Positions 10,288 to 61,699 of a stretch of 64,000 bases of DNA are shown piece by piece. The stretch is from an uncultured Gammaproteobacteria bacterium (GTDB lineage: Bacteria > Patescibacteriota > Microgenomatia > CAZETR01 > Amesbacteraceae), in the NCBI GenBank assembly GCA_964543035.1, contig CAZIVL010000001.1, positions 45,714 to 109,713 of the forward strand. The letters run 5' to 3'. A model generated the notes under the pieces. The model was not told where the DNA came from. It saw only the letters and a program-made list of their open reading frames with translations, and did no database searches. How positions within the stretch are numbered: the stretch's first letter is position 1; each line of letters opens with the position of its first letter. The translations under genes and the position numbers were made by a program.

Positions 10288-11688
10288 ATGTTGACCAATC
10301 GTCCTCCCATCGTAGTCATCTTGGGCCATGTCGATCACGGCAAGACCTCTCTTCTGGATTATCTGCGAAAGACTTCAGTAGTCTCCCGTGAAGCCGGCGG
10401 CATCACCCAGCACATCAGCTCCTTTCAACTAATCACCAATAACCAATCACTAATCACTTTCATAGATACTCCCGGTCACGCCGCCTTTTCTAATATTAGA
10501 AGCCGGGGATCAAAGATCGCCGATATTGCTATCCTCGTTGTCGCCTCAGGTGATGGTGTCATGCCTCAGACAAAAGAGTCAATTCAATTTATCAAAGACT
10601 CAAAAATTCCCTTCATAGTCGCCCTCACCAAGTCCGATCTCGATACCGCATCTCCCGATCGTGTGAAAACTCAGCTCACTGAAGTAGATGTCATAGTCGA
10701 GGATTATGGCGGCACCGTTCCTTGTGTCGCAGTTTCAGCAAAAACTGGCGCCGGGATACCCGATCTTTTAGAGATGATCGATCTGGTAAACAGCATGAAT
10801 CCCGCCCAGGCCGACCCCGAAGCCTCATTGGAAGCAGTCGTCTTAGAAAGTAGCCTCGATCCCAAAAAAGGGCCTCTAGCCACAGTTATCGTCAGGTCTG
10901 GCACACTGTCCGTAGGACTTACGCTTTTCCAAAAATCTCAAGTTGGCAAAGTTCGCTCACTTATCGATTCAGATGGAAATCAGATCAAGTCCGCTCTTCC
11001 CTCCACTCCAGTCGAGATCATAGGTCTCTCCGAAGTTTTGGAAGTAGGTTCCATTATCTCCACCCAACCCATCCTCACAACCAATCCCACTACTCACCAC
11101 TCACAACCCGCTACCTCAAAATCAGGTTTAGTGAACCTGATTTTGAAAAGTGATGTCCTTTCATCGCAAGAAGCTATTTTGAGTAGTCTGCCCAAGGGAG
11201 TAAATGTTGTCTCATTCTCAACTGGCGATGTAAACGAGTCCGATGTCGCAACCGCCCAGTCGTCAGGCGCCACTATCCTGGCCTTCAATGTCAAAGCTCC
11301 CAGTGGGGTAGCCAAGCTCGCCGAAGTCGACCATGTTTCGATAAAATCATTCAAAATAATTTATGAGCTTCTCGATACAGTTGCTCGAATGTTTGCTCCA
11401 GTAGTCACGGAGACGGTTTTGGGTAGGGCTACTGTCGCCGCCGAATTCAAGATCAATGCCGATCGTATTGCCGGCGCTCGTTGCACCGAAGGGGTTATTT
11501 CCAAAGGGGATCAGATCAAGATCCAAAGAGGGGAGACTGTAGTCGGGACGAGTAGACTCAAGTCTCTAAAAACCAGCAAAACCGAAATTCCCTCTATCAA
11601 GTCCGGAGGCGAGTTTGGCGCTGTCTTTAGCCCTTATGTTGACTTTAAGGTCGGCGACATTATAATCGCCTTCAAAGTCACATCATGA
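10288..11688 (+). CDS. infB: Translation initiation factor IF-2 (short form, G-domain onward)
   Basis: [21 protein letters not shown] motifs; 466 aa only (no long N-terminal region). Confidence 0.9.
   Translation: MLTNRPPIVVILGHVDHGKTSLLDYLRKTSVVSREAGGITQHISSFQLITNNQSLITFIDTPGHAAFSNIRSRGSKIADIAILVVASGDGVMPQTKESIQFIKDSKIPFIVALTKSDLDTASPDRVKTQLTEVDVIVEDYGGTVPCVAVSAKTGAGIPDLLEMIDLVNSMNPAQADPEASLEAVVLESSLDPKKGPLATVIVRSGTLSVGLTLFQKSQVGKVRSLIDSDGNQIKSALPSTPVEIIGLSEVLEVGSIISTQPILTTNPTTHHSQPATSKSGLVNLILKSDVLSSQEAILSSLPKGVNVVSFSTGDVNESDVATAQSSGATILAFNVKAPSGVAKLAEVDHVSIKSFKIIYELLDTVARMFAPVVTETVLGRATVAAEFKINADRIAGARCTEGVISKGDQIKIQRGETVVGTSRLKSLKTSKTEIPSIKSGGEFGAVFSPYVDFKVGDIIIAFKVTS
10431..10458 (+). 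repeat. Heptamer tandem array AATCACC-AATAACC-AATCACT-AATCACT inside infB
   Basis: Seen directly; encodes …ITNNQSLIT… just before the conserved ITFIDTPGH. Confidence 0.8.
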
Positions 11689-12557
11689 GTACATTAGACA
11701 CTTCCCTCATCCAGCCCGTCCTAAACAGTTCCCAGACCTTTACTATTCTTATTCCCAAAAATCCTCTTTATGACCACGTGGCCTCAGGTCTGGCTCTCAA
11801 ATTGAGCCTAGAAACAGCCGGCAAGAGAGTGACTGTCGCCTGTCCCGACCCCATGACCGTGGAGTTCAACCGTCTGGTAGGTGTAGACGCCATTACTAGT
11901 AATCTCGGTGGCAGAAATCTCCTCATCACTTTCGGTAGTCAGACCGACGTAGTAGACAAGATCAGCTATCACGTCGAAAATGGCGATCTCAGGCTCGTCA
12001 TTACTCCCAAAGAGGGCGCCCCAAATGTAGATCACAGTCAGCTCCAGTTTGTTCCTGGCACGGCCAAACCCGAAGTTCTCATCTTAGTCGGTGCCCTCGA
12101 TCTTACCGATTTTGGCCACATCTATACCAACACCAAAGAGCATTTCCAAGCCTCCAATGTCATCGCTCTTTCCCACACTCCTCCTACCAATCAGTTTGCC
12201 CATTATCATTTTTCCGACGCTGGAGTCTCATCTTTGTGTGAGCTCACCACTCATTTTCTAAACACTTTGACCCTGACTGTGTCTGACGATGCAGCCACCA
12301 ATTTATTATCTGGCATTGAAATAACCACCGCTGACTTTAAGTCTCCGGCTGTTTCCGCCGGTACTTTTGAAGCCGCCGCCAGTCTGCTCAAAAAGGGCGC
12401 CAGGAGACACAATCCCATCAAGCCCTCCGATTTCCCAGCTGGCGCCATTCCCCAAGGGGATAGTACTCCCGGTACAGCCGAAAGAGTCCAAGAAATAAAA
12501 TCTCCTCCAGCCGATTGGGTCGGCCCCAAGATTTACAACAACCCACCACTAATCTAG
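11685..12557 (+). CDS. Hypothetical protein (possible degenerate DHH/NrnA-like fold)
   Basis: 290-aa ORF overlapping the infB stop (ATGA); weak resemblance to DHH-family N-terminus but catalytic Asp/His motifs not evident. Confidence 0.4.
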   Translation: MSTLDTSLIQPVLNSSQTFTILIPKNPLYDHVASGLALKLSLETAGKRVTVACPDPMTVEFNRLVGVDAITSNLGGRNLLITFGSQTDVVDKISYHVENGDLRLVITPKEGAPNVDHSQLQFVPGTAKPEVLILVGALDLTDFGHIYTNTKEHFQASNVIALSHTPPTNQFAHYHFSDAGVSSLCELTTHFLNTLTLTVSDDAATNLLSGIEITTADFKSPAVSAGTFEAAASLLKKGARRHNPIKPSDFPAGAIPQGDSTPGTAERVQEIKSPPADWVGPKIYNNPPLI

Positions 12558-12558
12558 T

Positions 12559-12897
12559 ATGGCCAAAGTCTTATCATTTGAGGACGATTCAGACATGCGA
12601 AGTCTTGTTCGACATGTTATCAAATCAAGTGGGCACGAATTAATAGCAGAGGCAGATAATCCTTTCTCCGCCGTTGATGTAATAGCTAGATTTGCAGCCC
12701 AAGCTGGCATTGCTATCGTAGATGGAAATTTGGGATTCGGAAAAGACGATGGAAGTTTAGTGATCCAAGATTTGAAAGCTGCCAATTCAAAAATTATCAC
12801 AGTGGGGAATTCTCTTGATAGAGATGTTTTTGGGGCTGACCGCCAAGCTCAAAAAAACTTCAATTTGTTGAAAACTATACTGCAAGGTATAAGATAA
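12559..12897 (+). CDS. Receiver-like (CheY-fold) domain protein, hypothetical
   Basis: 112 aa; alternating beta/alpha pattern with acidic N-terminus (SFEDDSD) and an AIVDGNL segment reminiscent of receiver domains. Confidence 0.3.
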   Translation: MAKVLSFEDDSDMRSLVRHVIKSSGHELIAEADNPFSAVDVIARFAAQAGIAIVDGNLGFGKDDGSLVIQDLKAANSKIITVGNSLDRDVFGADRQAQKNFNLLKTILQGIR

Positions 12898-12901
12898 CAT
12901 C

Positions 12902-13183: not shown

Positions 13184-13195
13184 GCACATTTAACA

Positions 13196-13204
13196 TGGTA
13201 TAAT
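13196..13204 (+). promoter_or_regulatory. Extended -10 promoter element TGGTATAAT upstream of rpsO
   Basis: Seen directly; followed by a long AT-rich leader containing the TTAGGATTT…TAGAATTTAG motif. Confidence 0.4.
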
Positions 13205-13335
13205 ACCCACAGTCAAAAAGAGAACTAGCGTTAGTCGGTCTGGTTGCAGCACTCACTAACTCGCCCAATCTCTTTTTTTTCTAATTCTTTAGGATTTAGA
13301 TATTAGAATTTAGAATTTAAAATCATTTTATAAAT

Positions 13336-13605: not shown

Positions 13606-13609
13606 GTCT

Positions 13610-13900: not shown

Positions 13901-14002
13901 TACTGTATAATACCAACTAACTCGAAGATTCGAGAGGTGCGAAGAGAACATTTTTTCTTCAGACTTCTTGAAAACAAACGCTTCGACAAAGAGTAAAAAG
14001 TA

Positions 14003-17841: not shown

Positions 17842-17880
17842 GTCATCCTGACCCCGCAGCTGCGGGGGAAGGATCCAGTA
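17842..17880 (+). repeat. Repeat family copy R1: GTCATCCTGA-CCCCGCAGCTGCGGGGG-AAGGATCCAGTA
   Basis: Seen directly, 12 nt after the Lon-like stop. Confidence 0.85.
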
Positions 17881-18880: not shown

Positions 18881-18956
18881 GTCATCCTGACCCCGCAGCA
18901 GCGGGGGAAGGATCCAGCTTATTTGTCCTATTCGACCCAACCGACCTATTTGTCAT
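18881..18956 (+). repeat. Repeat family copy R2 (GTCATCCTGA-CCCCGCAGCAGCGGGGG-AAGGATCCAGC) plus T-rich tail ending CTATTTGTCATATG fused to the udg start codon
   Basis: Seen directly; tail resembles the one after R4 (26114-26165). Confidence 0.85.
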
Positions 18957-19598
18957 ATGACCACACAGCAAAAGATTGAGGAACTAAACAAGATTGCCCA
19001 GGAGATCAGAGCCTTTAAGGGCTTGGATATCGCCAAAAATGCCAAAAATGCCGTTCCCGGCGAGGGCAGTCCTGATGCCAAGATTTTATTTATCGGCGAG
19101 GCCCCCGGCCAGGTAGAGGACGATTCTGGTCGCCCGTTTGTAGGCCGGTCTGGCCAGATGATGCGCACTGTTTTGACTGAGACTACTGGCATCAAACCGG
19201 AGGAAGTATTTATCACCAATATTGTGAAATACCGCCCTCCAGACAACCGGGATCCGTTTGATAATGAGATCGAGGCCTGTCGAGACTGGCTAGATCGCCA
19301 GATTGCCATCATTGCTCCCAAGATCATTGTCACCCTCGGGCGTTTCAGCATGGCCAAGTTCATCCCCGGCGTCACTATTTCAAAAGTCCACGGAATCCCT
19401 CACAACTCACAACTCACAACTGACAACCTACAACTAAAATTTATCGTCTTCCCCATGTTCCATCCCGCGGCTGCACTTCGCGGAACTGGCACCATGATGC
19501 AATTTAAGGGAGATTTTGTTAAACTGTACACACTTATCAACCCGCCCGCTCCTACCACTTCCCTAATTCAAGAAACAGTAGAAGAAGTACTCGCCTAA
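18957..19598 (+). CDS. Uracil-DNA glycosylase, family 4
   Basis: GEGSPDAKILFIGEAPG…GRPFVGRSGQ motif; HPAAALR near C-terminus. Confidence 0.85.
   Translation: MTTQQKIEELNKIAQEIRAFKGLDIAKNAKNAVPGEGSPDAKILFIGEAPGQVEDDSGRPFVGRSGQMMRTVLTETTGIKPEEVFITNIVKYRPPDNRDPFDNEIEACRDWLDRQIAIIAPKIIVTLGRFSMAKFIPGVTISKVHGIPHNSQLTTDNLQLKFIVFPMFHPAAALRGTGTMMQFKGDFVKLYTLINPPAPTTSLIQETVEEVLA
19401..19435 (+). repeat. Heptamer tandem array CACAACT x3-GACAACC-TACAACT inside the UDG gene
   Basis: Seen directly; encodes HNSQLTTDNLQL inserted between …KVHGIP and KFIVFPMFHP. Confidence 0.85.
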
Positions 19599-23915: not shown

Positions 23916-26093
23916 ATGCCCAGAAGTAGGTCTATTTTTGGCCGGCGTAAATTCCAGGTCAAGCTCAAACAATCCACAGTCAATTCTATTGGCGCCTCTA
24001 TCCTCTTCGCCATTTCTGGCCTCATCTGGCTCTCATTTATTCGCCAGGGCACTCTCCTTATTAGTCTCAACGATTTTCTGGTCACCAATCTCGGTTTTAT
24101 TCCCACGCTTTATTTCCCCCTCATTCCCATCTTTGGGGGACTGATGATTACCAAGATCAAGACTTCTCTTTCTTCTGCCAATGTTTTTGTGGGTAGTATT
24201 TTGACCCTCGCTGCCCTCATCGGTCTTTTTCACGATGGCTTTGTGGGTGCCCAAGTCTGGCAAAATCTCACCACTCTTATCTATTACCCCGGCGCCTTTT
24301 TGTTCTTGGTCGCCACTCTTGGCATTGGTCTCATTATTTCTTTCAACATTCCTTTTGAGGACGTTGTAAATTTTGTTTTGGATCTTCTTCGCAAGCTGTT
24401 TGGCATCTTTAGTCGGTTCAAAGGTCCAGACCTGGCCAATACTCCCTTAAATCGCCCCATCAAATTGGGTGGCCTTACGGGCAAACCTGCCGTTGTTCCC
24501 GCCAAACAAGCCTCGCTCTTTTCCAGTAAGCCAGTGGAGATCAAGGGCATGGGCACCAAGCCCGTTAACCAATCACCAATCACCAATAACCAAAAACCAA
24601 TAACCCCTCTCCCAGCCGCCGCCACCGACACTGTCTGGCATTATCCACCTCTTACTTTGTTGTCCGAAAATATTTCTGGTAAGGCCGACCGGGGAAATAT
24701 AAACAACAATGCCGCCATCATCGAAAAGACTCTCGAGGCTTTTGGCATTACGGCCAAAGTCATCGAGGTAAACATGGGTCCCGCCGTCACCCAATATGCC
24801 CTCGAAGTCGCCATCGGTACTAAGCTCTCCAAGATTTCGGCCTTAGGGTCTGACTTGGCTTTGGCCCTCGCCGCTCCCACGGGACAGATTCGCATCGAAG
24901 CCCCGATTCCCGGAAGGTCTCTGGTGGGTATCGAGTTACCTAACCGTTCTCCCGAGTTTGTCAGCCTGCGAAAGATCCTGGAGTCGGATAATGCCAAAAA
25001 TCACAAGTCCAAGCTGGCAGTTGCCATGGGTCTGGACGTCTCCGGCGAGCCTATTGTCGCCGATATCGCCAAGATGCCCCACGTTTTGATAGCAGGGAGC
25101 ACCGGTTCCGGAAAATCAGTCGCCATCAACTCATTTATCGCCTCTCTGCTCTTCAGAGCCAGTCCTCAGGAGGTCAATCTCATTATGGTGGATCCCAAGC
25201 GTGTGGAGCTGACGGGTTACAATGGCATTCCTCATCTTTTGAGTCCTGTGATCGTCGAGCCCGAAAAAGTCTTGTCCGCTCTCAAGTGGGCCACCGGCGA
25301 GATGGAACGCCGCTACAAGCTCTTTGCCGAGGTGGGAGTCAGAAATCTCGAGGGTTACAACGAGCTCTCCGGCTTCCAGGCCCTTCCTTACATAGTTATC
25401 GTGATAGACGAGCTCGCCGATATCATGTTGTTTGCCCAAGTTGAGGTAGAAGACACTATTACTCGTATCGCCCAGATGGCCCGAGCCACCGGTATTCACC
25501 TCGTGTTGGCCACTCAGCGCCCGTCTGTGGATATCATCACGGGTCTTATAAAGGCAAACATCCCGACTCGCATCGCCTTCTCAGTCTCTTCCATGATCGA
25601 TTCAAAAGTGGTCTTGGATCAGCCCGGAGCCGAGAAATTGTTGGGCAAAGGGGACATGCTTTATATTCCCCCAGATGCTGCCAAGCCTACTCGCATCCAG
25701 GGTTCATTTGTGTCAGACAAGGAGATCAAGAGCCTGATCGAGTTTTTGAAAAAGCAGGGTGTGGCTCCGCATTACACTGAAGAAGTGACCAATACTCCGA
25801 TCGGAAAGATTGGTGGTCGTGGCGGCCGGGGTAGCAGCTTCATCGCTCCCAATGGTGAGGACCGGGATGAATTGTTTGAGGATGCCCTCAGGCTCATCGT
25901 CCAGCACAACACCGCATCTGCTTCTTTCTTACAAAGAAAGCTCAGTATTGGTTACGCCCGTGCGGCTCGAGTCCTCGATGAGCTCTACGGAGCCGGCGCC
26001 ATTGGTCCAGCCGACGGGGCCAAGCCCCGCGACATCATGGTCTCCGACGTAACCTCATTCCTCAATCCAGCGCCTCAAGAACAGTCATCCTGA
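23916..26093 (+). CDS. ftsK: DNA translocase FtsK/SpoIIIE
   Basis: N-terminal TM helices; Walker A GSTGSGKS; winged-helix gamma domain at C-terminus. Confidence 0.9.
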   Translation: MPRSRSIFGRRKFQVKLKQSTVNSIGASILFAISGLIWLSFIRQGTLLISLNDFLVTNLGFIPTLYFPLIPIFGGLMITKIKTSLSSANVFVGSILTLAALIGLFHDGFVGAQVWQNLTTLIYYPGAFLFLVATLGIGLIISFNIPFEDVVNFVLDLLRKLFGIFSRFKGPDLANTPLNRPIKLGGLTGKPAVVPAKQASLFSSKPVEIKGMGTKPVNQSPITNNQKPITPLPAAATDTVWHYPPLTLLSENISGKADRGNINNNAAIIEKTLEAFGITAKVIEVNMGPAVTQYALEVAIGTKLSKISALGSDLALALAAPTGQIRIEAPIPGRSLVGIELPNRSPEFVSLRKILESDNAKNHKSKLAVAMGLDVSGEPIVADIAKMPHVLIAGSTGSGKSVAINSFIASLLFRASPQEVNLIMVDPKRVELTGYNGIPHLLSPVIVEPEKVLSALKWATGEMERRYKLFAEVGVRNLEGYNELSGFQALPYIVIVIDELADIMLFAQVEVEDTITRIAQMARATGIHLVLATQRPSVDIITGLIKANIPTRIAFSVSSMIDSKVVLDQPGAEKLLGKGDMLYIPPDAAKPTRIQGSFVSDKEIKSLIEFLKKQGVAPHYTEEVTNTPIGKIGGRGGRGSSFIAPNGEDRDELFEDALRLIVQHNTASASFLQRKLSIGYARAARVLDELYGAGAIGPADGAKPRDIMVSDVTSFLNPAPQEQSS
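24571..24605 (+). repeat. Heptamer tandem array AATCACC x2-AATAACC-AAAAACC-AATAACC inside the ftsK linker
   Basis: Seen directly; encodes NQSPITNNQKPIT. Confidence 0.85.
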
Positions 26094-26165
26094 GCGAAGC
26101 GAAGGATCCAGTACATTTCATTTTATTCGTCTTATCTGACTTATCGGTCTTATTTGTCATATTGC
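26085..26165 (+). repeat. Repeat family copy R4 (GTCATCCTGAGCGAAGCGAAGGATCCAGTA; supplies the ftsK TGA stop) plus T-rich tail ending CTTATTTGTCATAT
   Basis: Seen directly; tail followed by TATAAT and the rodZ-like start. Confidence 0.85.
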
Positions 26166-27222: not shown

Positions 27223-29028
27223 ATGATTTCCGGCTCTGATGTTAGGAAAAAATATCTCGATTTTTTTGCAGTTCGCGGCCATGTCGTCATTCCTTCAGCG
27301 CCATTAGTTCCCGAAAACGACCCCACCACACTTTTTACCGGCTCCGGCATGCAGCCCATGTTGCAGTATTTACTAGGGGCTCCATATCCCGAGGGCAAGA
27401 CCAGGATTGTCGATTCCCAAAAATGTTTCAGATCCCAAGACATCGAAGAAGTGGGGGACAATCGTCACACCACTTCGTTTGAGATGTTGGGCAACTGGTC
27501 ACTTGGAGACTACTTCAAAAAAGAGCAGTTGACTTGGATGTGGGAGTTTTTTACACAAGAATTAGGTTTGGACAAAAACCACATTTTTGTCTCCGTTTTC
27601 GAAGGCGACACCGAGATTCCCAGAGATGATGAAGCAGTCGAGATTTGGAAAAGTTTGGGGGTCCCGGAAGAAAGAATTTTTTACTACAGCGACAAAAAAA
27701 ATTGGTGGAGCAGATCAGGTCCTAAGGCAAATATGCCAGTGGGTGAGCCCGGAGGCCCAGATTCCGAAATCTTTTACGACTTCGGAGAAGAGCATCAGTT
27801 TCATGAAAATTCCCAGTGGAAAAATGAAGAGTGTCATCCCAATTGTGATTGCGGTCGATTTATAGAAATTGGCAACAACGTGTTTATGACCTATGTAAAA
27901 ACAGATTCGGGATTTGAACCATTAAAGAAGAAAAATATCGATTACGGCGGGGGACTGGAGCGCATTGCTGCAGCCGTCCACGGCGTCCCCGATATTTTTG
28001 TGACCAGTCTTTACAAAAAGATTATTGCCGAGGTAGAAGAAATGTCAGGAAAATCATACGCCGATAACACAACGGCGTTCAGAATCATCGCCGATCATCT
28101 CAAAGCCTCAGTGTTTCTCATTGCCGACGGCGTTACTCCGTCAAACAAATCTCAAGGATATTTCTTGCGTAGACTCCTGCGAAGGAGTCTGGTGAAGTTG
28201 CAACAGCTTGGTATCTCCACTACCGATTTTACACCAATAATAAAAGCAATTATTGATACTTATTCAGACACCGACTATTTCAAAAATTCCCAAGTTACAG
28301 TTATTAGTTCAGAGATTTCGTCAGAAGCCGAAAAATTTGCCAAGACTTTAAAAGATGGGTTAAAAAGAATTGGTGATACCACACCTTTTGATCTCTTCCA
28401 GACCTATGGCTTCCCGCCCGAAGTCACCGAGGAATTACTCAAGCAAGAAGGCAAGTCTTTGGACTGGGACGAGTTCAACAAAGAAAAATCCCAGCATCAG
28501 GATTTGTCCCGTACTGCTGGAAAAGGCATGTTCAAAGGCGGGCTTCAGGATCAGTCGGAGATCACGACTCGCTATCACACTGCCACACATTTATTACATG
28601 CCTCACTGCGAAAGATATTGGGAGATCACGTCCAGCAAAAGGGTTCCAACATTACGGCCGATCGGTTACGTTTTGATTTTTCCCACGACTCCAAATTAAC
28701 TAATTCACAAATTCACGAGATTGAAGACCTGGTAAATCAACAGATTATTAAGGATCTTCCTGTCACTAAAGTAGAAATGCGCAAAACGGACGCACTCGCC
28801 CAAGGCGCTCTCGCCTTTTTCCCCGAAAAATATCCCGATGTTACCAATGTTTATTCTATTGGCGACCCTTCGACAGGCTCAGGGCAAGTTTTTTCAAAAG
28901 AGCTTTGTGGTGGTCCGCACGTGAATTCGACTGGTATTATTGGTAAGATAAAAATAACCCGTGAAGAATCCGCGGGTGCTGGCATCCGCCGCATATATGC
29001 AACTGCCCTTCCTCAAAAAGAAAACTGA
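27223..29028 (+). CDS. alaS: Alanine--tRNA ligase (compact, lacks C-Ala domain)
   Basis: Class II AlaRS catalytic core; editing-domain HxxxH (TATHLLH) and CGGPHV; only 601 aa. Confidence 0.9.
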   Translation: MISGSDVRKKYLDFFAVRGHVVIPSAPLVPENDPTTLFTGSGMQPMLQYLLGAPYPEGKTRIVDSQKCFRSQDIEEVGDNRHTTSFEMLGNWSLGDYFKKEQLTWMWEFFTQELGLDKNHIFVSVFEGDTEIPRDDEAVEIWKSLGVPEERIFYYSDKKNWWSRSGPKANMPVGEPGGPDSEIFYDFGEEHQFHENSQWKNEECHPNCDCGRFIEIGNNVFMTYVKTDSGFEPLKKKNIDYGGGLERIAAAVHGVPDIFVTSLYKKIIAEVEEMSGKSYADNTTAFRIIADHLKASVFLIADGVTPSNKSQGYFLRRLLRRSLVKLQQLGISTTDFTPIIKAIIDTYSDTDYFKNSQVTVISSEISSEAEKFAKTLKDGLKRIGDTTPFDLFQTYGFPPEVTEELLKQEGKSLDWDEFNKEKSQHQDLSRTAGKGMFKGGLQDQSEITTRYHTATHLLHASLRKILGDHVQQKGSNITADRLRFDFSHDSKLTNSQIHEIEDLVNQQIIKDLPVTKVEMRKTDALAQGALAFFPEKYPDVTNVYSIGDPSTGSGQVFSKELCGGPHVNSTGIIGKIKITREESAGAGIRRIYATALPQKEN

Positions 29029-31072
29029 AACAAAACGCGAGTATTTATTCGCGCTTGAGGTCAGTCACTCCGTCGTAAAAAGTGCTATCTGGACCGTAGC
29101 CAACAATCATCCTCAAGCAGTTTCAGTCAGCAGCTGTTTTTCTTGGGATGATGCCTCAGACGACAGTCTCATAGAAGCAGCCGACCAAGCTCTTACCGAG
29201 AGTAGCTTGCATCTCGATCATGCCGGCAAGATTCAGCCCGAAAAAGTGATTTTCGGCCTCCCCTCGGACTGGATTACTTCAGAAGAAAAGATTGTTCCCG
29301 AAAAGCTGCCAATTCTAAAAAAGCTTACCACCAAGCTGTCGCTCACGGCTATCGGTTTTGTTGTTACCCAAGAAGCCATTGTCCGTTTTATTCATAGCCA
29401 AGAAGGCGTCCCCACGACTGCTATTTTAGTCGGTGTCCGCCCTCATATTATTGAGCTGTCTCTCGTCAAGCTGGGCAAGATTCTCGGAACTCACATCATC
29501 AAGCGCGGGCAGGATATTGCCGAAGACGTCATCGAAGGACTATCTCGTTTTCCTCACCAGGATATGTTGCCGTCCCGCATTCTGCTTTACGACTCATCCC
29601 TGGATCTAAATGAAATAAAACAGCAATTACTTTCCCATCAGTGGCTCTCACATCATACTAAGTTGCCCTTTTTACACTTTCCCAAAGTAGAGATCTTGCC
29701 AGAAGATCATACTGTAAAAGCCATCGCTCTCTCAGGTGGCTCCGAAGTCGCAGTTTCACTAGGTCTTATGTCAGAGCCAGCGACGATCGAACCTGAAGCC
29801 CCTCCAGTGATTCCTGAAGTATCCGCCCCAGATGACAACTTAGGTTTTATCGAACACGAGGTCCAAGAAGAGGAGGTGCCAGAGGTAGTAAAATCACGTC
29901 TGACTATGCCCCAGATTTCTCTGCCCAAGTTTTCTGCCTCTCCCATTATCATCATTGTGGTTCTTCTCATTTTGGTGATCGGCTCTTCAGCTGCTTTGTG
30001 GTTCTTGCCGAGGGCTACAGTGGATCTGACTATTGAACCCAAAAAGACCGAGGTCAGTTTTGATCTTGTAGTGGACCCCAAAGGAAACGCCACCAGCTCC
30101 GGCTCTCCTATTATCTTGGGCAAACTCATGGAGACCCTGGCCTCTTCCCAAAAGACTACTGACGCCACCGGCTCAAAATTAGTCGGTGACCGCGCCAAGG
30201 GAGAAGTAACTATGATAAACGGCACGACTGCGACCCGGTCTTTCCCAGCCGGGACCGTCATCATTTCTCCAAGTGGGCTGAAGTTTACTCTCGACGCCGC
30301 AGTTTCTGTTGCATCGGCCTCAGGGACCGCTGATCCAAATTCATATCAGCCCGGCAAATCCAATGTAAAAGTGACCGCAGAAGCCATCGGCACCGACTCA
30401 AATATTTCCGCCGGCACCTCATTTAGAGTCGGCACTTTTTCCACCCTAGATTATGTGGCAAAAAATGACGCCGCTTTTGGGGGCGGCAGCAGTAGGCAAG
30501 CCAAGGCCATTTCAAAAACCGATATCGAGAGTCTGAGGTCTTCTCTTTCCGATTCCCTAAAGACTCAAGCCCAAGAGGATCTTGAAGCCAAGATTGATGA
30601 TGACAACAAAATAATTTTGGAGACTATTGTCTTAACGACTACTTCCGAAAAGTTCAATCACAAAGAAGGCGATATCGCAGACAATGTCACCCTCGAGCTG
30701 TCAGTGAAGGCTTCAGCCGTCAGCATTGCCAAAGCGGATCTCGATGCCGTGGTGGAAGAACAATTGGGTCCCAAGATTCCCGAAGGCTTTACTCCCACAG
30801 ATTCCGTCACTCCCCATTTTGTTTTCAAGTCCACCAAAGATGGCCTAACCAGTCTTACAACCACTGTGGAAGCAGAGCTCATTCCTGTATATGACCAGGT
30901 GCAAATCGCAAAAAATATCGTAGGCAAAAGGCCAGCCACGGCCCAGGAATATCTTTTGAGCCTGCCCCAAGTCAGAGACGTCCAGATGTCATACTTCCCG
31001 CCAGCTCCCGGGTTTCTCGTTACGCTTCCTCACGTGGCCAAAAATATTAAGCTAAATCTGGTCTCTCCCTAA
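28997..31072 (+). CDS. Actin-fold (FtsA/PilM-like) cytoplasmic domain - single TM - large extracytoplasmic domain fusion protein
   Basis: N-terminal ~330 aa align in pattern to FtsA/PilM (YLFALEV…, …TAILVGVRPHIIELSLV…) but nucleotide-binding glycine motifs are degenerate; TM at ~aa 320-345; start overlaps alaS 3' end. Confidence 0.5.
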   Translation: MQLPFLKKKTETKREYLFALEVSHSVVKSAIWTVANNHPQAVSVSSCFSWDDASDDSLIEAADQALTESSLHLDHAGKIQPEKVIFGLPSDWITSEEKIVPEKLPILKKLTTKLSLTAIGFVVTQEAIVRFIHSQEGVPTTAILVGVRPHIIELSLVKLGKILGTHIIKRGQDIAEDVIEGLSRFPHQDMLPSRILLYDSSLDLNEIKQQLLSHQWLSHHTKLPFLHFPKVEILPEDHTVKAIALSGGSEVAVSLGLMSEPATIEPEAPPVIPEVSAPDDNLGFIEHEVQEEEVPEVVKSRLTMPQISLPKFSASPIIIIVVLLILVIGSSAALWFLPRATVDLTIEPKKTEVSFDLVVDPKGNATSSGSPIILGKLMETLASSQKTTDATGSKLVGDRAKGEVTMINGTTATRSFPAGTVIISPSGLKFTLDAAVSVASASGTADPNSYQPGKSNVKVTAEAIGTDSNISAGTSFRVGTFSTLDYVAKNDAAFGGGSSRQAKAISKTDIESLRSSLSDSLKTQAQEDLEAKIDDDNKIILETIVLTTTSEKFNHKEGDIADNVTLELSVKASAVSIAKADLDAVVEEQLGPKIPEGFTPTDSVTPHFVFKSTKDGLTSLTTTVEAELIPVYDQVQIAKNIVGKRPATAQEYLLSLPQVRDVQMSYFPPAPGFLVTLPHVAKNIKLNLVSP

Positions 31073-31791: not shown

Positions 31792-31962
31792 ATGTCTCAA
31801 GAAGAAGAAAAATCTGATCAAACCAAAGGCTTTGCGCCGAGTGTGACTGGTGCACTTCTTACAGCACTAGTCAGAGATAATGAAGCAAGAGAGGATCCTC
31901 CTATCCAAATTGTGTTGGCCTCTGAAAAGACACGCGAGCCTCTAGATACTTCGTCATCCTGA
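31792..31962 (+). CDS. Small hypothetical protein whose stop lies in repeat R5
   Basis: 57-aa ORF (MSQEEEKSDQ…); weak. Confidence 0.2.
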   Translation: MSQEEEKSDQTKGFAPSVTGALLTALVRDNEAREDPPIQIVLASEKTREPLDTSSS

Positions 31963-31992
31963 CCCCGCAGCTGCGGGGGAAGGATCCAGTAC
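31953..31992 (+). repeat. Repeat family copy R5: GTCATCCTGA-CCCCGCAGCTGCGGGGG-AAGGATCCAGTA
   Basis: Seen directly; identical to R1. Confidence 0.85.
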
Positions 31993-32013: not shown

Positions 32014-32367
32014 ATGAACATTCTTGGACTTGACTACGGTGCAAAATATATTGGTGTGGCCCTCGCCACGAGTCCCTTAGCAGAGCCACTGACGACAATT
32101 CCCACAGACCGATTTTTTGCCGAACTACCGGCCCTTATTGAGAAGCATCAGGTCACCCACATAATAATAGGTGATCAAACTCCACAGGAATTCATCGCCC
32201 AACTAAAAACTAATAACCAAGAACTAATAACCATTGACGAGACACTTTCATCTCACGACGCCCGCCAGTCTCTTCTGCACACCACCCAGACTAGAAGAAA
32301 AGAAAACGAGCACTCAGTCGCCGCCGCCATCATCCTCCAATCCTGGCTTGACTCCACCACTAAATGA
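32014..32367 (+). CDS. YqgF/RuvX-like putative pre-16S rRNA nuclease (Holliday-junction-resolvase fold)
   Basis: MNILGLDYGAKYIGVA… and …ITIDETLSSHDA motifs; contains the heptamer array at 32203-32237 (KTNNQELIT). Confidence 0.8.
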   Translation: MNILGLDYGAKYIGVALATSPLAEPLTTIPTDRFFAELPALIEKHQVTHIIIGDQTPQEFIAQLKTNNQELITIDETLSSHDARQSLLHTTQTRRKENEHSVAAAIILQSWLDSTTK

Positions 32368-41191: not shown

Positions 41192-41626
41192 ATGCCAACA
41201 ATCAATCAGCTCATCAGAAAAGGTCGCAAAGCCAAAGGCTTCAAAGTCAAAGCGACCGCACTACGCAGGTCTTTCAATGCCAAGGATCGCCGGTTTGTGG
41301 ATACCAAGAGCCCCTTCAAAAGGGGAGTTTTAACCGTCGTTCGTACCATGACTCCTCGTAAGCCAAATTCAGCTTTGCGCAAGGTAGCCCGTGTCAGACT
41401 CTCAAACAAATACGAAGTTACCGCCTACATCCCAGGCATTGGTCACAACCTAGCCGAGCACGGTATAGTCTTGGTCAGAGGTGGTCGGGTAAAAGATCTT
41501 TCCGGAGTAAAATATCACATCGTCCGTGGCAAGTACGATTCCGCCGGAGTCGAGACCAGACGTCAAGGTCGCTCCCGTTATGGCACCAAAGCAGTTAGTG
41601 GACCCAAAGGCGCCGCAGCCAGTTAA
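41192..41626 (+). CDS. rpsL: 30S ribosomal protein S12
   Basis: [12 protein letters not shown]…[13 protein letters not shown]…. Confidence 0.95.
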
Positions 41627-41627
41627 T

Positions 41628-41669
41628 CATTAAACATTAAACATTAAACATTAAACATTAAACATTAAA
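41628..41669 (+). repeat. (CATTAAA)6 perfect heptamer tandem repeat filling the rpsL–rpsG spacer
   Basis: Seen directly, starts 2 nt after the rpsL stop. Confidence 0.9.
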
Positions 41670-41675
41670 GAAAGT

Positions 41676-42152
41676 ATGAGATCAAAAACCAAATCAATCA
41701 GAACCGTGTCCGCCGATCCAGTGTATAACTCGGTTACCGTGACCAAAGTTATAAACAGATCCATGATCGATGGCAAAAAGTCCGTCGCCCAAAAACAGAT
41801 CTACAAGACCATCGATATTCTGAAGGAAAAAACCGGCAAAGATGGCCTAGAAGTTTTCGAGCAAGCTTTGGAAAACATCAAGCCTCAGATGGAAGTTCGA
41901 GCGCGGCGCGTGGGTGGTGCCGCTTACCAAGTCCCTTCTCCCGTGCGTGGAGTCCGTCGTGATGCTTTGAGTATCCGCTGGCTAGTCACAGCAGCGAGAG
42001 CCAGATCAAACTCTGATTTTCACTCATACGCCGAAAAGTTAGCCGCCGAGCTCTTGGACGCCCTCAACAATTCTGGTGCCGCCATAAAAAAGAAGTTAGA
42101 TACTCACAGAATGGCCGAAGCAAACAAAGCCTTCGCCCATTTCAGATGGTAA
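41676..42152 (+). CDS. rpsG: 30S ribosomal protein S7
   Basis: S7-like 158 aa. Confidence 0.95.
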
Positions 42153-42199
42153 TTTTTATAAATACTTAATACTTTATACATAATACGTAATACAAATTT

Positions 42200-45063: not shown

Positions 45064-45211
45064 GTCATCCTGAACGCACCCCTGTCATCCTGAGCGTCCT
45101 GTACCACTCATATCACACTCGCTTTTTTATTGTCATCCTGGACGCCCTGTACCACTCATATCACACTCGCTTTTTTATTGTCATCCTGAACGCAGTGAAG
45201 GATCCAGTACC
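45064..45211 (+). repeat. Cluster of four GTCATCCTG[A/G] heads including a tandem 48-bp duplication (GTCATCCTGRGCGYCCTGTACCACTCATATCACACTCGCTTTTTTATT x2), ending in …GAAGGATCCAGTACC
   Basis: Seen directly; begins 5 nt after the rpsI stop; the 3' part encodes the C-terminus and stop of the minus-strand GIY-YIG gene. Confidence 0.85.
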
Positions 45212-45514: not shown

Positions 45515-45597
45515 TGTCATTCTGAACCGCAGTGAAGAATCCAGCTCATCCCCTTGTCATCCTGACCCCGCAGCTGCGGGGGAAGGATCCAGTACCA
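45515..45597 (+). repeat. Two adjacent repeat copies (GTCATTCTGAACCGCAGTGAAGAATCCAGC and GTCATCCTGACCCCGCAGCTGCGGGGGAAGGATCCAGTACC)
   Basis: Seen directly, between two minus-strand genes. Confidence 0.85.
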
Positions 45598-51949: not shown

Positions 51950-52393
51950 GTGGAAGAGTACAAGAGATTATTTTCCAGTTGTTTAAAACAGTTGGGGATT
52001 AGACCCAGAAGCGAAAAAGAGATCCGTGACTCGTTGTCCAAAAAGAGCTCAGACACCGATTTGATTAATCAGATTGTAGGCAAGCTCAAGTCAGAAAATC
52101 TTATTAATGATTCTGAATTTGCCACCTGGTATGTGGAATCTCGTAGTAGGTCTCGTCCCCGGGGTCTTCGTCTACTTCAATATGAGCTGAGTCAAAAAGG
52201 TGTCTCCGCTGACAACTTACAACTAACAACTGACAACGAAATCGCTTTAGCAAAAAAGGCTCTGGAGAAAAAATTGATTCTATGGTCAAACCTGCCCAAA
52301 CTGGAGTTCAAGATCAAAGCCCAGCGATTTCTCAATAGCCGTGGTTTTGGCTGGAGCGCGATTGAAGAAGCGGTCAAAAAAGCGTATAATTGA
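51950..52393 (+). CDS. recX: RecA regulator RecX
   Basis: Three-helix repeat architecture, position after recA; GTG start; contains heptamer array. Confidence 0.7.
   Translation: MEEYKRLFSSCLKQLGIRPRSEKEIRDSLSKKSSDTDLINQIVGKLKSENLINDSEFATWYVESRSRSRPRGLRLLQYELSQKGVSADNLQLTTDNEIALAKKALEKKLILWSNLPKLEFKIKAQRFLNSRGFGWSAIEEAVKKAYN
52211..52238 (+). repeat. Heptamer tandem array GACAACT-TACAACT-AACAACT-GACAACG inside recX
   Basis: Seen directly; encodes ADNLQLTTDNE. Confidence 0.85.
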
Positions 52394-53568: not shown

Positions 53569-53598
53569 GTCATCCTGAGTCGCAGCGAAGGATCCAGT
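53569..53598 (+). repeat. Repeat family copy R8: GTCATCCTGAGTCGCAGCGAAGGATCCAGT
   Basis: Seen directly, 7 nt after the rny stop. Confidence 0.85.
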
Positions 53599-53740
53599 CT
53601 TCTCTCCATAATTCATAATTCCAGATTCATAATTCAAATTTAATCCCATATATCCATTTTTTCTCTTGACATCACTTCGGCTTTAATGTAACTTCACCAA
53701 CAGAAATGATATACAGATTTTTGAGAGGGGGTGAGCGTAA

Positions 53741-54018: not shown

Positions 54019-54049
54019 GTCATCCTGAGCCGCCGCGAAGGATCCAGGC
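54019..54049 (+). repeat. Repeat family copy R9: GTCATCCTGAGCCGCCGCGAAGGATCCAGGCTCAGG (with CCTGAGCC/GGCTCAGG inverted repeat)
   Basis: Seen directly, 5 nt after the hup stop. Confidence 0.85.
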
Positions 54050-58984: not shown

Positions 58985-58991
58985 CAGTTGT

Positions 58992-59024
58992 GTCATCCTG
59001 AGCCTCAGCGAAGGATCCAGGCTC
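58992..59024 (+). repeat. Repeat family copy R10: GTCATCCTGAGCCTCAGCGAAGGATCCAGGCTCAT
   Basis: Seen directly, 7 nt after the ATPase stop and ending 2 nt before the next start. Confidence 0.85.
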
Positions 59025-59026
59025 AT

Positions 59027-59827
59027 ATGAAAAAATATTTCACAATCTTCTCTCTCTCCTTTCAAAACGAATTTACATATCGCCTAAATTTTATTCTCTG
59101 GCGTCTTAGAAATGTCCTTCGCATTCTCATGGTTATCACTCTCTGGAACGTAGTTCTTGCGGGCAGAGGTCATGCTTTTGGTTACACTTCTGACCAACTG
59201 ATTGCTTATGTTTTTCTGGCCTCCGTAGTCCAGACATTAGTCATGGCCTCTCCTTCAAATGACAATATAGGTGGAGAGATATCAGGAGGAGATCTATCCA
59301 ACTATTTAGTTAAGCCCATCAGCTACATCAAATATTGGTTCACCAGAGACATGGCCAGCAAGCTTCTCAATATTATTTTTGCAGTTGCCGAGCTTACAAT
59401 TCTTCTTGCTTTATTCCGACCAGATATCACTTTCCCATTCACAGTGAATAACTTTTTTCTCGGTGTTCTTGCTTTGGGCTTAGCCATTACCTCTTATTTC
59501 TTTATCTCAAAAATGGCAGTATTCATCGCTTTTTGGATTCCCGAAAACACCTGGGGTTTTATGTTTATAGTTCTAGTATTTCTGGAGATGCTGTCAGGAG
59601 TCATCTTTCCTCTCGATGTTTTACCTACTGCGATTCGCTCAATAGTCGATCTCACCCCATTTCCATATCTCATTTATTATCCCATCGGTATTTATGTAGG
59701 CAAATTTACATCACCTCAAGTATTTTGGATCATATTAAAATCGATGATTTGGGTTGCCGCCGGCTTGTTCTTATCCAGTCGTATCTGGCGAAAGGGCTTA
59801 AAAGTTTATGCATCGGAGGGAAAGTAG
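59027..59827 (+). CDS. ABC-2 family transporter permease, type A paralog 3
   Basis: ORF 58988.. trimmed to MKKYFTIFSL (upstream part is the repeat). Confidence 0.65.
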   Translation: MKKYFTIFSLSFQNEFTYRLNFILWRLRNVLRILMVITLWNVVLAGRGHAFGYTSDQLIAYVFLASVVQTLVMASPSNDNIGGEISGGDLSNYLVKPISYIKYWFTRDMASKLLNIIFAVAELTILLALFRPDITFPFTVNNFFLGVLALGLAITSYFFISKMAVFIAFWIPENTWGFMFIVLVFLEMLSGVIFPLDVLPTAIRSIVDLTPFPYLIYYPIGIYVGKFTSPQVFWIILKSMIWVAAGLFLSSRIWRKGLKVYASEGK

Positions 59828-59828
59828 T

Positions 59829-60608
59829 ATGAGATATTTAAAAATTATCAATATATATTTTGTAAATTCACTTCAATCAATCATTGCAAATCCTATGGCA
59901 TTCTGGATATTTTTCATTAGTAAGTTTATTCGTTACGGATTATTTTTTATGTTTCTCTTTTTCCTGTCCTCATCTATTGGTTCTGTGGGTGGATATACCT
60001 CCACACAGATGCTTACTTTTTATCTAGTCTTCAGTTTGATAGACACCACCGGACAGATGTTTTACCGCGAGGTCTACCGATTTCGCCCATTAGTCCTCAA
60101 TGGGGGATTTGATGGTGTCTTGGCAAAGCCATTTCCTGTATTACTTAGAGTTCTGGTTGGGGGACCAGATTTTATAGATATGGGGATATTGGCTATCCTT
60201 GTTTTAGTTCTACTCTACATGTTGGCATTCGTCATTCATCCCACTGCTACCCATCTGTTTATCTTTATTTTGCTGTTTCTCAATTCGCTCATTATTTCTA
60301 CTGCTATTCACATCTTTGTCTTGGGTATCGGCATCATGACTTTATCCGTGGATCATCTCATCATGATTTACAGAGACCTATCAGCCTTACTTCGTATTCC
60401 CATCGATTTTTTCTCTGATTCTATGCGAGCTCTTTTCACTTTTGTTATCCCACTGGGCGTAATGTTTACATTTCCCGCCAAAGGACTCATGGGTCTTCTC
60501 TCGTGGCAAAACATCATTCTGTCAGTAACTATTTCAGTTGCAGTTCTTTATCTATCCCTTCGATTTTGGAAGTACTCCCTCAAGCATTACCAATCCGCCA
60601 GCAGCTAG
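59829..60608 (+). CDS. ABC-2 family transporter permease, type B paralog 3
   Basis: Start MRYLKIIN; ends …KHYQSASS. Confidence 0.65.
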   Translation: MRYLKIINIYFVNSLQSIIANPMAFWIFFISKFIRYGLFFMFLFFLSSSIGSVGGYTSTQMLTFYLVFSLIDTTGQMFYREVYRFRPLVLNGGFDGVLAKPFPVLLRVLVGGPDFIDMGILAILVLVLLYMLAFVIHPTATHLFIFILLFLNSLIISTAIHIFVLGIGIMTLSVDHLIMIYRDLSALLRIPIDFFSDSMRALFTFVIPLGVMFTFPAKGLMGLLSWQNIILSVTISVAVLYLSLRFWKYSLKHYQSASS

Positions 60609-60823
60609 CGAGTATCCCCTTGAGATAGAGCATGTCCAAGTTTGTTCAAAGCTGTTTCAATGCCCTTCACCACACCCTCAGCTAAATAAAACGGTAGACG
60701 GATTAAAAAACATGCGACCTGAGCAGTAGCCCTCTCTTGTTCCATCGCTTCTCCCGCTCTTAGTGTAGCGTTTGTAACTTCCGGATCAAGTCGTTCACTC
60801 ATGCGAGAGATTATAATACCAAT

Positions 60824-61699
60824 ATGCAAAAAGTGCTCATAATCTGTGGTCCGACTGCGACCGGGAAGACGGCGTTTGGGATAGAGATGGCAAAGCGGTT
60901 AAATGGCGAGATTGTCTCCGCGGATTCTCGCCAGGTCTACGTAGGTCGTGACCTGATCACAGGCAAAGACTTACCTCACAACTCTCAACCCACTACCTCA
61001 AATCTGATTTGGAAAGACCATGAGCTCAAATATTATTTAGTTAACGGGACCCCAACATGGCTCTACGACGTAGTAGATCCGGGAGAGGATTTCAACGTCT
61101 CTTTTTGGAAAGAGTGTGCAGACATCGTGATTTCGGACATCGTGTCTCGAGGAAAGCTCCCAATCGTAGTTGGTGGCACCGGATTATTTATAAAATCTCT
61201 CACCCAGCCGCTAAACAATATCTCTATAAAATCAGACCCCGAGCTTCGAAAAAAACTTGAGTCCATGTCAGTTGGCGATCTCTTTGATTATTTACAGTCC
61301 CTAGACCGGAATCGGTCTATGGGACTCAACGAGTCCGATGCAAAAAACCCCCGAAGATTAATTCGGGCAATAGAAATTTCAAAATTCAAACCGTCAAATT
61401 CTACCCACAACTCACAACCCACTACCTATAACTATTTGCCCATCTGCCTCTCCGCTCCCACTGCATATCTGTTTCCTCGTATCGACAAGCGAGTAGAAGA
61501 CCGTATTGCCGCAGGTGCTGCTCTCGAAGACCCAGTTCTGGCGTCAGATCCTCAGAAGTGGAAATATCACGAGCACGATCTGGCCAGACGCCAAATTACC
61601 TGGTTCAAAAAGCAGCCCGATTTGCTCTCGTTTGACATCTCAACTCCTGATTGGCAAGAAAATGCAATATCATTAGTCACAACTTGGTATAATAAATAG
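60824..61699 (+). CDS. miaA: tRNA dimethylallyltransferase
   Basis: P-loop GPTATGKT; DSRQVY motif; contains two heptamer-type insertions (60975-61002, 61401-61435). Confidence 0.85.
   Translation: MQKVLIICGPTATGKTAFGIEMAKRLNGEIVSADSRQVYVGRDLITGKDLPHNSQPTTSNLIWKDHELKYYLVNGTPTWLYDVVDPGEDFNVSFWKECADIVISDIVSRGKLPIVVGGTGLFIKSLTQPLNNISIKSDPELRKKLESMSVGDLFDYLQSLDRNRSMGLNESDAKNPRRLIRAIEISKFKPSNSTHNSQPTTYNYLPICLSAPTAYLFPRIDKRVEDRIAAGAALEDPVLASDPQKWKYHEHDLARRQITWFKKQPDLLSFDISTPDWQENAISLVTTWYNK
60975..61002 (+). repeat. Period-7 array CTCACAA-CTCTCAA-CCCACTA-CCTCAAA inside miaA
   Basis: Seen directly; encodes PHNSQPTTSN. Confidence 0.7.
61401..61435 (+). repeat. Period-7 array CTACCCA-CAACTCA-CAACCCA-CTACCTA-TAACTAT inside miaA
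   Basis: Seen directly; encodes STHNSQPTTYNY; near-duplicate of the 60975 array. Confidence 0.7.

Follow-up and report, generated by a model that had tools for sequence, protein, structure and literature searches.

Tandem heptanucleotide arrays inside conserved genes and gene spacers of an Amesbacteria-like genome

Introduction

Families of repeated heptanucleotides have been known in bacteria since about 1990. Here, we describe tandem arrays with a 7-nt period that lie within conserved housekeeping genes and between genes in a 64-kb stretch of contig CAZIVL010000001.1 (64,000 nt; the window), whose nearest genomes are those of Patescibacteria/Microgenomates, Candidatus Amesbacteria, in the candidate phyla radiation (CPR). 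Mazel et al. are said to have described the heptamers of cyanobacterial short tandemly repeated repetitive (STRR) sequences in 1990. The units of STRR1, STRR2 and STRR3 are CCCCAGT, TTGGTCA and CAACAGT, respectively. Repeats within protein genes include the Rickettsia palindromic elements (RPEs), which are palindromic and mobile, measure about 100-150 nt and are inserted in frame, and those in the open reading frames (ORFs) of Borg elements, whose unit lengths are divisible by three.

According to the summary of Mrazek et al. (2007) contained in PMC4679880, heptanucleotides are the most abundant class of long repeats in most genomes, slippage is perhaps tied to a polymerase contact length of roughly 7 nt, and repeats in coding regions mostly have unit lengths divisible by three. 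Heptamer leaders are known from Nostoc, for example GAC(C/T)AAT x8 at recO (bioRxiv 10.1101/2022.06.06.494920). TAACTGA direct repeats occur in marine Beggiatoaceae, some cyanobacteria and Bacteroidetes (MacGregor 2015, PMC4679880); they are present in 2-6 copies, mostly a few nt upstream of start codons, ribosomal protein operons included, and their forward orientation holds stop codons, with ORFs carrying the stop-free orientation only (PMC4679880). Geobacter metallireducens harbors four or five tandem heptanucleotides (GGACCGG x4 at 49 sites, MTYCTGA x5), and these elements were read as a regulatory RNA or a binding site (PMC2700814). Small repeats inserted in frame in protein genes, RPEs among them, are mentioned in a passage of PMC1779305, and a passage of PMC9879509 describes the tandem repeats of Borg elements as rapidly evolving, of independent origin in ORFs and intergenic DNA, and a source of new peptide segments and disordered protein regions. 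Our literature search found no papers on such heptamer repeats in Amesbacteria or CPR.

Results

Period-7 arrays in the window

Arrays were called by comparing each base with the base p nt downstream, with a threshold of at least 16 matches in 21 comparisons. At period 7 the window contains 11 arrays above this threshold, and any other period from 4 to 13 yields 0-2; a signal at period 14 is a harmonic of period 7. Dinucleotide-preserving or local shuffles of the window contained 0 period-7 arrays, and 12 of the 30 rows reported for the window by Tandem Repeats Finder have period 7. With the weaker ones included, a total of 13 arrays are dispersed over the 64 kb, and further arrays occur in loci of congeners and of the family. 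They are long simple sequence repeats (LSSRs) by the definition of head-to-tail units of 5-11 nt in arrays beyond chance length.

Seven of the 11 strong arrays are coding (two in infB and one each in udg, ftsK, ruvX, recX and miaA), and the other four are located in spacers. On an ORF-based map, about 60 kb of the window are coding and roughly 3-4 kb (about 6%) are spacer, so that strong arrays are about eight times denser in spacers. A preliminary description of this DNA had treated the arrays as an unusual signature for core genes; given this density, they are not peculiar to such genes. The arrays it placed in infB, udg, ftsK, ruvX/yqgF, recX and miaA were recovered at or near the positions it gave, whereas the one it saw in the rplM tail is background (12/21 matches at lag 7, 13/21 at lag 8); missing from its list were a second infB array (11088-11115) and five intergenic arrays. 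Compositional coincidence, which it had named as the outcome that would empty the observation, is effectively ruled out, since enrichment is limited to period 7 and the shuffles contain no arrays.

Two further public assemblies hold stretches identical to the window, and relatives have arrays at the same sites; the arrays are therefore not an assembly artefact. Copy-number variation between strains was not seen among the only same-species contigs, L001 and L002, which are 100% identical to the window. As RNA, the arrays show no structure, the minimum free energy within them being 0 to -0.6 kcal/mol. RNA structure was rejected as an explanation, as arrays and leaders fold no better than shuffles. 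Rfam models at the gathering threshold matched tRNA and RNase P RNA only in the window, with no match at the arrays.

Arrays within conserved proteins

The identity of each array-bearing gene is confirmed by a Pfam match (IF2, family-4 uracil-DNA glycosylase (UDG), FtsK, RuvX/YqgF, RecX and MiaA). The coding arrays are:

10427..10460, plus strand: infB site 1, CAACTAA TCACCAA TAACCAA TCACTAA TCACT
11088..11115, plus strand: infB site 2, CACTACT CACCACT CACAACC CGCTACC (the one absent from the preliminary description)
19393..19437, plus strand: udg, family-4 uracil-DNA glycosylase, CACAACT x3, GACAACC, TACAACT
24560..24609, plus strand: ftsK, TAACCAA TCACCAA TCACCAA TAACCAA AAACCAA TAACC
32200..32231, plus strand: ruvX/yqgF, CAACTAA AAACTAA TAACCAA GAACTAA TAACC, peptide QLKTNNQELI
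52206..52241, plus strand: recX, GACAACT TACAACT AACAACT GACAAC, peptide ADNLQLTTDN
60972..61002, plus strand: miaA site 1, degenerate, CACAACT CTCAACC CACTACC, peptide PHNSQPTTSN
61401..61428, plus strand: miaA site 2, CACAACT CACAACC CACTACC, peptide THNSQPTT

The arrays are in frame, and the N/Q/T/S-rich peptides quoted for them earlier are correct. Site 1 of infB (QLITNNQSLIT) lies in the G domain of IF2 between the GGITQ and DTPGH motifs, and site 2 (PTTHHSQPAT) in the linker joining domain II to the IF-2 domain. The UDG array peptide, PHNSQLTTDNLQL, is predicted to make up a beta-hairpin, the turn as well as both strands; the AlphaFold model has strands at 149-155 and 158-167, and the predicted local distance difference test score (pLDDT) of the array block is about 77-85. 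The FtsK peptide, NQSPITNNQKPIT, is positioned in the linker preceding the alpha domain, and that of RecX in the linker joining the second helical domain to the third. Site 1 of MiaA, modelled with high confidence by AlphaFold, is a coil plus the first strand of a family-specific beta-hairpin insertion, and site 2 is a hypervariable loop modelled with low confidence (pLDDT 57).

With 14/21 lag-7 matches, miaA site 1 falls below the array threshold, and it is a 20/21 copy of the 21-mer of site 2. This imperfect 21-mer, CACAACT-CACAACC-CACTACC, is found at infB 11095, miaA 60977 and miaA 61406 with 0-2 mismatches (0 expected by chance). Coding strings for ITNNQxLIT are common to the IF2, FtsK and RuvX arrays.

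G makes up 0-4% of the coding arrays (11% in recX), and A+C 73-83%. Off-frame stops are present, the used frame is clear, and unit variants are placed accordingly. The notion that the arrays are stop-free in all three frames is thus wrong, as most coding arrays have off-frame stops. Dimers of the CAACY type occur on the sense strand only in every genome sampled, a restriction that we ascribe to the in-frame TGA that the reverse complement would introduce.

Housekeeping proteins of the window are strongly shortened, as is typical of CPR: IF2 has 466 aa and is devoid of N-terminal domains (10288-11688), AlaRS has 601 aa (27223-29028), RuvX 117 aa and RecX 147 aa.

The same sites carry different units in relatives

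Relatives do carry arrays at the same sites, with different units, and close congeners are sometimes without them; this answers the question of same-site arrays in homologous genomes that the preliminary description had posed. The UDG segment preceding HPAA has the common form HGQPRFVDF-QGQ-KY-IVFP, and many relatives are longer at exactly that turn. At the DNA level the hairpin is built of CACAACT in the window, TACAACT-like units in the congener L003, CAAATTT x4 in L027 and CAACTGT x3 in L028. Each of these long forms exceeds the short form by 12 nt, and L029 exceeds it by 21 nt; the closest relative after L003 (P0003/L030) has the short form. The array is equally long in the window and L003 (about 82% nucleotide identity), which differ by substitutions only, and the first three units are identical in the window and differ in L003. 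In a rough neighbor-joining tree of UDG, the window and L003 fall, with their long form, among short-form sequences. A single ancient insertion was therefore rejected, since this tree, too crude for counting events, suggests more than one gain or loss.

The distance from GGITQ to DTPGH in IF2 is 27 residues in non-Amesbacteria CPR, 28 in the window (ACCAATC-type units), 29 in L029 (TGCYAAT) and 31 in L003 and L030 (AAATTCM); L004 also has 27 residues but is GCTAACN-periodic. Conserved I/L-T codons form the last units in three lineages with different units, as in L004, with GCTAACA over CTA ACA, and in L029, with CCAATCAC. The proposal that the conserved ITF codons of infB are themselves a repeat unit that was expanded locally fits these last units, which coincide with the conserved I-T codons also in relatives with other units.

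Substitution of one unit type by another is also seen at the remaining sites. RecX has GACAACT units in the window and TCAACTC x4 at the same place in L154, and no array in L156. In RuvX, L004 has TTAGAAA TTAGAAA TTCGAAA CTAGAAA where the window has AACTAAT-type units, and the third of these units has TTC exactly where TTA would make an in-frame TAG. Site 1 of MiaA is occupied by a segment of equal length, 12 residues, in 108 of 118 homologs; among these 108, identity between residues i and i+7 is 28% vs 2-11% at other offsets, as in NIQ..NIQ, NLK..NLK, TIN..TIN and IVN..IVN. The heptamers are visible in the DNA of L154 (CAACTAT/CAACCAT) and L155 (CACAACT CACAACC CACAACC), and the MiaA and RecX arrays are both missing in the congener L156. 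These dynamics fit local seeding, gain and loss on the timescale of species, and turnover of units within arrays. That the arrays might be surprisingly stable, one of the options raised in the preliminary description, agrees with the unchanged UDG length in the ~82% congener and the constant MiaA site 1 length in 108/118 homologs.

Some relatives have other in-frame inserts in the MiaA site 2 loop (P0133, P0134, P0142, P0148, P0152, P0164 and others) and in the UDG hairpin (P0068, P0096, P0119), such as PSLKLREG..GVSY, SPRLGEGRG, PAGRQ and VRQAHHPEQGRG. Back-translated from the protein, they would resemble GC-rich palindromes of the CCCTCCCTTAAATTAAGGGAGGG type, and the array-bearing loops may accept small hairpin elements too.

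Insertion or overwriting

The arrays had been thought to be insertions relative to the family consensus, and this holds only for UDG (+4 aa vs the nearest short forms, +1 vs 4zbx and +8 vs 1ui0) and for RecX (+4 aa vs the congener L156). At MiaA site 1 the whole family has an insertion of about 19 aa relative to solved MiaA, and the array lies within it; site 2, like RuvX, shows no net insertion against solved homologs. The IF2 site 1 array likewise adds next to nothing, being 1 aa longer than Thermus IF2, and its 16-residue segment is the commonest length among 118 relatives; at IF2 site 2 the linker is shorter than in Thermus IF2. The FtsK linker has its usual length (12-15 aa across all relatives). 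With little or no net insertion at most sites, the arrays mostly overwrite variable segments instead of adding to them.

Spacer arrays and leaders

All four strong spacer arrays stop 0-10 nt short of the start codons of infB, rpsO, rpsG and rpsD, and in two of the four cases (rpsL-rpsG and rpsG-rpsD) the array fills the whole stop-to-start spacer. On the gene strand, the spacer arrays have stops in all three frames. Together with a weaker intergenic array, they are:

10255..10287, plus strand: infB leader array, TTAGAAT TTAGTTT TTAGTAT TTAATTT, ending at the infB ATG
13288..13325, plus strand: rpsO leader array, TTTAGGA TTTAGAT ATTAGAA TTTAGAA TTTAAAA, ending 10 nt before the rpsO start
41619..41676, plus strand: rpsL-rpsG spacer array, TTAAACA x6.7, from the rpsL stop codon to the rpsG start
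42158..42196, plus strand: rpsG-rpsD spacer array, AATACNT x5
53604..53645, plus strand: weaker intergenic array, AATTCAT AATTCCA GATTCAT AATTCAA, about 100 nt upstream of the HU gene

The rpsO leader array is well conserved in two congeners, and other Amesbacteria are without it. Array and downstream leader differ from congener L003 by 2 bases and 1 gap in about 51 nt, in a block of 84% identity. The rpsL-rpsG spacer holds 49 nt of TTAAACA in the window and 45 nt of ACTTAAT units (x6) in L032 and L033, and in both of these forms the units copy the TTAAT context of the stop codon; the congener L031 has no array, and its two genes overlap by 4 nt. The rpsG-rpsD spacer has five AATACNT units in the window, and L031 has five as well, ordered differently. 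The segment with the weaker array at 53604..53645 is missing from L156, which in turn has a TTTAGTA-type array between miaA and the permease gene vs a 2-nt gap in the window.

Distribution among relatives

Searches with the RNase J gene identified the congener L003 at about 82% nucleotide identity, followed by Candidatus Amesbacteria RIFCSPLOWO2_01_FULL_49_25 (68% protein identity) and then by other Microgenomates and Patescibacteria; the named homologs of UDG, MiaA and IF2 are mostly from Amesbacteria. The density of period-7 arrays per kb is 0.17-0.23 in the window and two congeners, 0.05-0.1 in other Amesbacteria loci and about 0.015 in other CPR loci, with the exception of L021. This contig, from an unrelated Patescibacteria lineage (RNase J identity 40%), carries six such arrays within 19 kb; the units, at 5267-6196 and 11654-11857, include TTGTAGC x9, CAAGTTG and ACCAGAT. 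The heptamer-array trait turns up sporadically within CPR.

A metagenome scan for ACAACTNACAACTNACAAC, of the CAACTNA type, gave more than 120 matches on contigs with a GC content of 0.30 to 0.68, and many of the arrays end just before an ATG. As a means of finding relatives the scan was discarded: it is not lineage-specific, and the unit type is cosmopolitan.

Other repeats and features of the window

The 17-mer that alaS and the rplM tail were reported to share is real and starts at 28696 and 44619, not at 28687 and 44609. With about 0.1 same-strand matches expected by chance in 64 kb by our own estimate, it carries little weight alone. Beside it in alaS, at 28692-28716, lies a repeat of period 8, not 7 (CAAATTCA x3.1), and the segment that this repeat encodes presumably has the same length as in E. 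coli AlaRS. The 703-aa ORF downstream of alaS (28961-31072) has no Pfam match at E <= 0.001.

Nine copies of a dispersed hairpin repeat, GTCATCCTGA-(6-16 nt, often CCCCGCAGCTGCGGGG)-GAAGGATCC, are present in the window (0 expected by chance), all in one orientation and mostly just past gene ends, like repetitive extragenic palindromic or terminator elements:

17842-17876, plus strand: hairpin repeat, copy 1
18881-18915, plus strand: hairpin repeat, copy 2
26084-26109, plus strand: hairpin repeat, copy 3
31953-31987, plus strand: hairpin repeat, copy 4
45180-45205, plus strand: hairpin repeat, copy 5
45556-45590, plus strand: hairpin repeat, copy 6
53569-53595, plus strand: hairpin repeat, copy 7
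54019-54045, plus strand: hairpin repeat, copy 8
58992-59018, plus strand: hairpin repeat, copy 9

The spacer after rpsI contains a 48-nt tandem repeat (45083-45193; 2.3 copies, 93% identity), and every copy opens with one half of the hairpin repeat, TGTCATCCTGA. At 63294-63556 (plus strand), RNase P RNA is encoded by a gene that passes the threshold of the archaeal Rfam model RF00373 with 98 bits, and not that of a bacterial model; the region is 97% identical in L156 and is overlapped by mechanically called ORFs.

Discussion

We consider it probable, at roughly 60%, that the arrays are heptanucleotide repeats of the STRR/LSSR type that characterise this Amesbacteria-like genome together with its relatives, and are not tied to particular genes. 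A local 7-nt stretch would be duplicated by slipped-strand mispairing or template switching during replication or repair, giving 4-7 units; in favor of such local duplication, units agree with conserved codons beside them or with the context of the stop codon. Any array could persist in a spacer, which would be why arrays are densest there and often fill the whole stop-to-start gap. To survive in coding DNA, an array would need a net length change that is a multiple of 3, no in-frame stop, and a peptide rich in N/Q/T/S/P/H/L/I in a tolerant hairpin, loop, linker or tail. Selection of this kind would account for the observed restriction to the sense strand, for the almost complete lack of G and for the fact that different lineages have arrays at the same permissive sites. 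Within genes, a slip of one or two units would shift the frame and soon meet an off-frame stop, and this cost would leave coding arrays length-locked and long-lived, as the comparisons with relatives show them to be. Their units, homogeneous within arrays, may be kept so by conversion-like turnover within arrays and perhaps between them. The encoded peptides are most likely neutral filler, and, more speculatively, the unstructured leader arrays may influence translation starts.

Several observations weigh against this account. Contigs of the same species are 100% identical and show no copy-number polymorphism, so that slippage is deduced from the arrays and not seen directly. Passive slippage does not easily explain a 7-nt periodicity kept at fixed coding length, where single-unit steps are frameshifts, nor does the account say why the period should be 7. 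Within one genome, different genes have a common unit type, CAACYNA in the genus of the window and in L155, and CAACYNT in L154 and L028: in the window, its two congeners and L155 the seventh base of CAACYNN is A (15 dimers vs 1), and in L154 and L028 it is T (13 vs 0), across different genes. One imperfect 21-mer stands at three loci of the window (infB and twice in miaA), and at MiaA site 1 the array of the window agrees with that of L155 at 28/33 positions, when MiaA and the neighboring permease are only 58-60% identical. The shared 21-mer, the unit types and the likeness between the window and L155 suggest that sequence was copied from one locus to another or that a sequence-specific process is at work; the points that fit poorly may stem from conversion between arrays, from a bias particular to the genome or from an active process. 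An active, genome-specific process of writing or homogenising, by ectopic conversion or templated heptamer synthesis, that rewrites the same permissive loops and the leaders of translation genes seems unlikely to us. Such a process would explain why unrelated genes share units particular to their genome, why genomes that diverged deeply have nearly identical arrays, and why CPR, cyanobacteria and Beggiatoaceae have heptamer families in common (NACCAAT, NAACTNA).

The same facts bear on the idea that the arrays are tiny elements, dispersed or mobile and about 21-35 nt long, that landed in frame at permissive sites, or that they were written there by templating or ectopic conversion, in the manner of RPEs and cyanobacterial small dispersed repeats and not by local origin. 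The 21-mer at infB 11095, miaA 60977 and miaA 61406, the ITNNQxLIT strings of IF2, FtsK and RuvX, the sharing of unit types across the genes of a genome with differences between genomes at orthologous sites, the MiaA site 1 match to L155 (28/33 despite deep divergence) and the in-frame palindromic inserts of relatives (back-translated from protein) in the same loops would all be expected of such elements. We nevertheless regard this origin as improbable, since units often match the local flanking codons or stop-codon context, array lengths and units vary continuously, and the arrays are without terminal inverted repeats, hairpin, target-site duplication or conserved boundaries; moreover, a likeness between arrays can arise simply because few A/C-rich units avoid in-frame stops. 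Nor is it easy to credit a role as functional cis-elements, bound as DNA or mRNA by a heptamer-binding factor (such as an OB-fold protein of the cold-shock type, a nucleoid protein or ribosomal protein S1), in which leader arrays would tune genes of the translation machinery and periodicity would be kept by selection, not by homogenisation. This would suit the location of all four strong spacer arrays next to the start codons of infB, rpsO, rpsG and rpsD, the close match of the rpsO leader to L003 (2 bases and 1 gap in ~51 nt at a block identity of 84%), the lack of RNA structure, as expected of single-strand binding sites, and the periodicity of MiaA site 1 kept family-wide; genome-specific unit types could reflect co-evolution with the factor, and a like placement has led to a like proposal for the Beggiatoaceae TAACTGA repeats and the Nostoc heptamer leaders. 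On the other hand, units vary widely by locus (TTTAGRA, TTAAACA, AATACTT, AATTCAT, NACYAAT, CAACTNA), which argues against one sequence-specific binder, and arrays are present in one congener and absent from another at the same spacer or gene with no other changes. The least credible reading, to which we attach next to no weight, is that composition or protein-level selection for N/Q/T/S-rich loops produced the pattern with no repeat process in the DNA. The coding strand is indeed slightly A/C-rich and the peptides lie in loops where polar residues are expected, but enrichment is confined to period 7 with 0 arrays in shuffles, protein-level selection could not produce a period of 7 nt, with which a single unit is read in each of the three frames, and non-coding spacers show the same periodicity. 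Phase-variable contingency loci, in which a changed number of repeats turns surface or virulence genes on and off, were dismissed as well, given that the hosts are housekeeping genes, UDG has the same length in the congener and same-species contigs show no variants.

Under the preferred reading of locally seeded heptanucleotide repeats, the arrays in conserved proteins offer an unusual handle on such families: orthology fixes site and frame, so gain, loss, unit turnover and homogenisation can be traced across many genomes, and repeat dynamics are thereby directly measurable in this CPR lineage. The arrays represent a route for tiny genomes to remodel protein loops and gene spacers. A practical lesson is that N/Q/T/S-rich peptides in CPR protein alignments are most likely repeat-derived filler, not functional motifs.

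Comparison with known systems

The window arrays resemble LSSRs, as far as these are summarised in PMC4679880, in being tandem, longer than chance, dominated by heptanucleotides and sporadic across lineages. They differ in that 7/11 strong arrays are coding despite a period of 7, and the CPR/Amesbacteria lineage is new.

With cyanobacterial STRR sequences and Nostoc leaders they share genome-wide families of tandem heptamers, often beside start codons. The Nostoc recO unit GAC(C/T)AAT agrees at 6/7 positions with the unit of window family A, [CA]AC[CT]AAT. The STRR units are not matched by NACYAAT, CAACTNA, TTTAGRA, TTAAACA, AATACTT or AATTCAT of the window, and NACCAAT is one base off the reverse complement of STRR2. 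The STRR host is a heterocyst-forming cyanobacterium, whereas the nearest genomes of the window are those of Candidatus Amesbacteria (Patescibacteria/Microgenomates); moreover, the window has many unit types, not few fixed ones, and its arrays frequently occupy housekeeping proteins in frame.

Like the TAACTGA repeats, four strong spacer arrays of the window stand just before starts, including those of ribosomal protein genes. No TAACTGA array is present in the window: the closest units, CAACTGA/CAACTAA, are one position off and lie inside recX, and the leader arrays use other units. Beggiatoa has one dominant unit, with ORF copies mostly at protein ends or in hypothetical proteins, whereas in the window units are diverse, and coding copies fall in loops within conserved proteins, again and again at the same sites throughout the family. 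Geobacter also has arrays of 4-5 heptamers dispersed in the genome; its unit is GC-rich and belongs to one element family found by BLAST, with no comparative evidence on protein sites or turnover. RPEs similarly extend conserved housekeeping proteins by short peptides at surface positions that tolerate them, but the window arrays are non-palindromic, unstructured, 28-50 nt long and often cause no net insertion. In contrast to the Borg repeats, the 7-nt unit of the window makes the peptide repeat only every 7 residues and locks its length to the frame.

The arrays are thus of a known kind and not the unprecedented signature for which they had been taken, as heptanucleotide repeat families, intragenic ones included, have already been described in cyanobacteria, Beggiatoaceae and Geobacter. 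What is new is the CPR lineage, the repeated occupancy of the same permissive loops in conserved proteins, the length-locked and long-lived state of the coding arrays, and the homogenisation of units within genomes.

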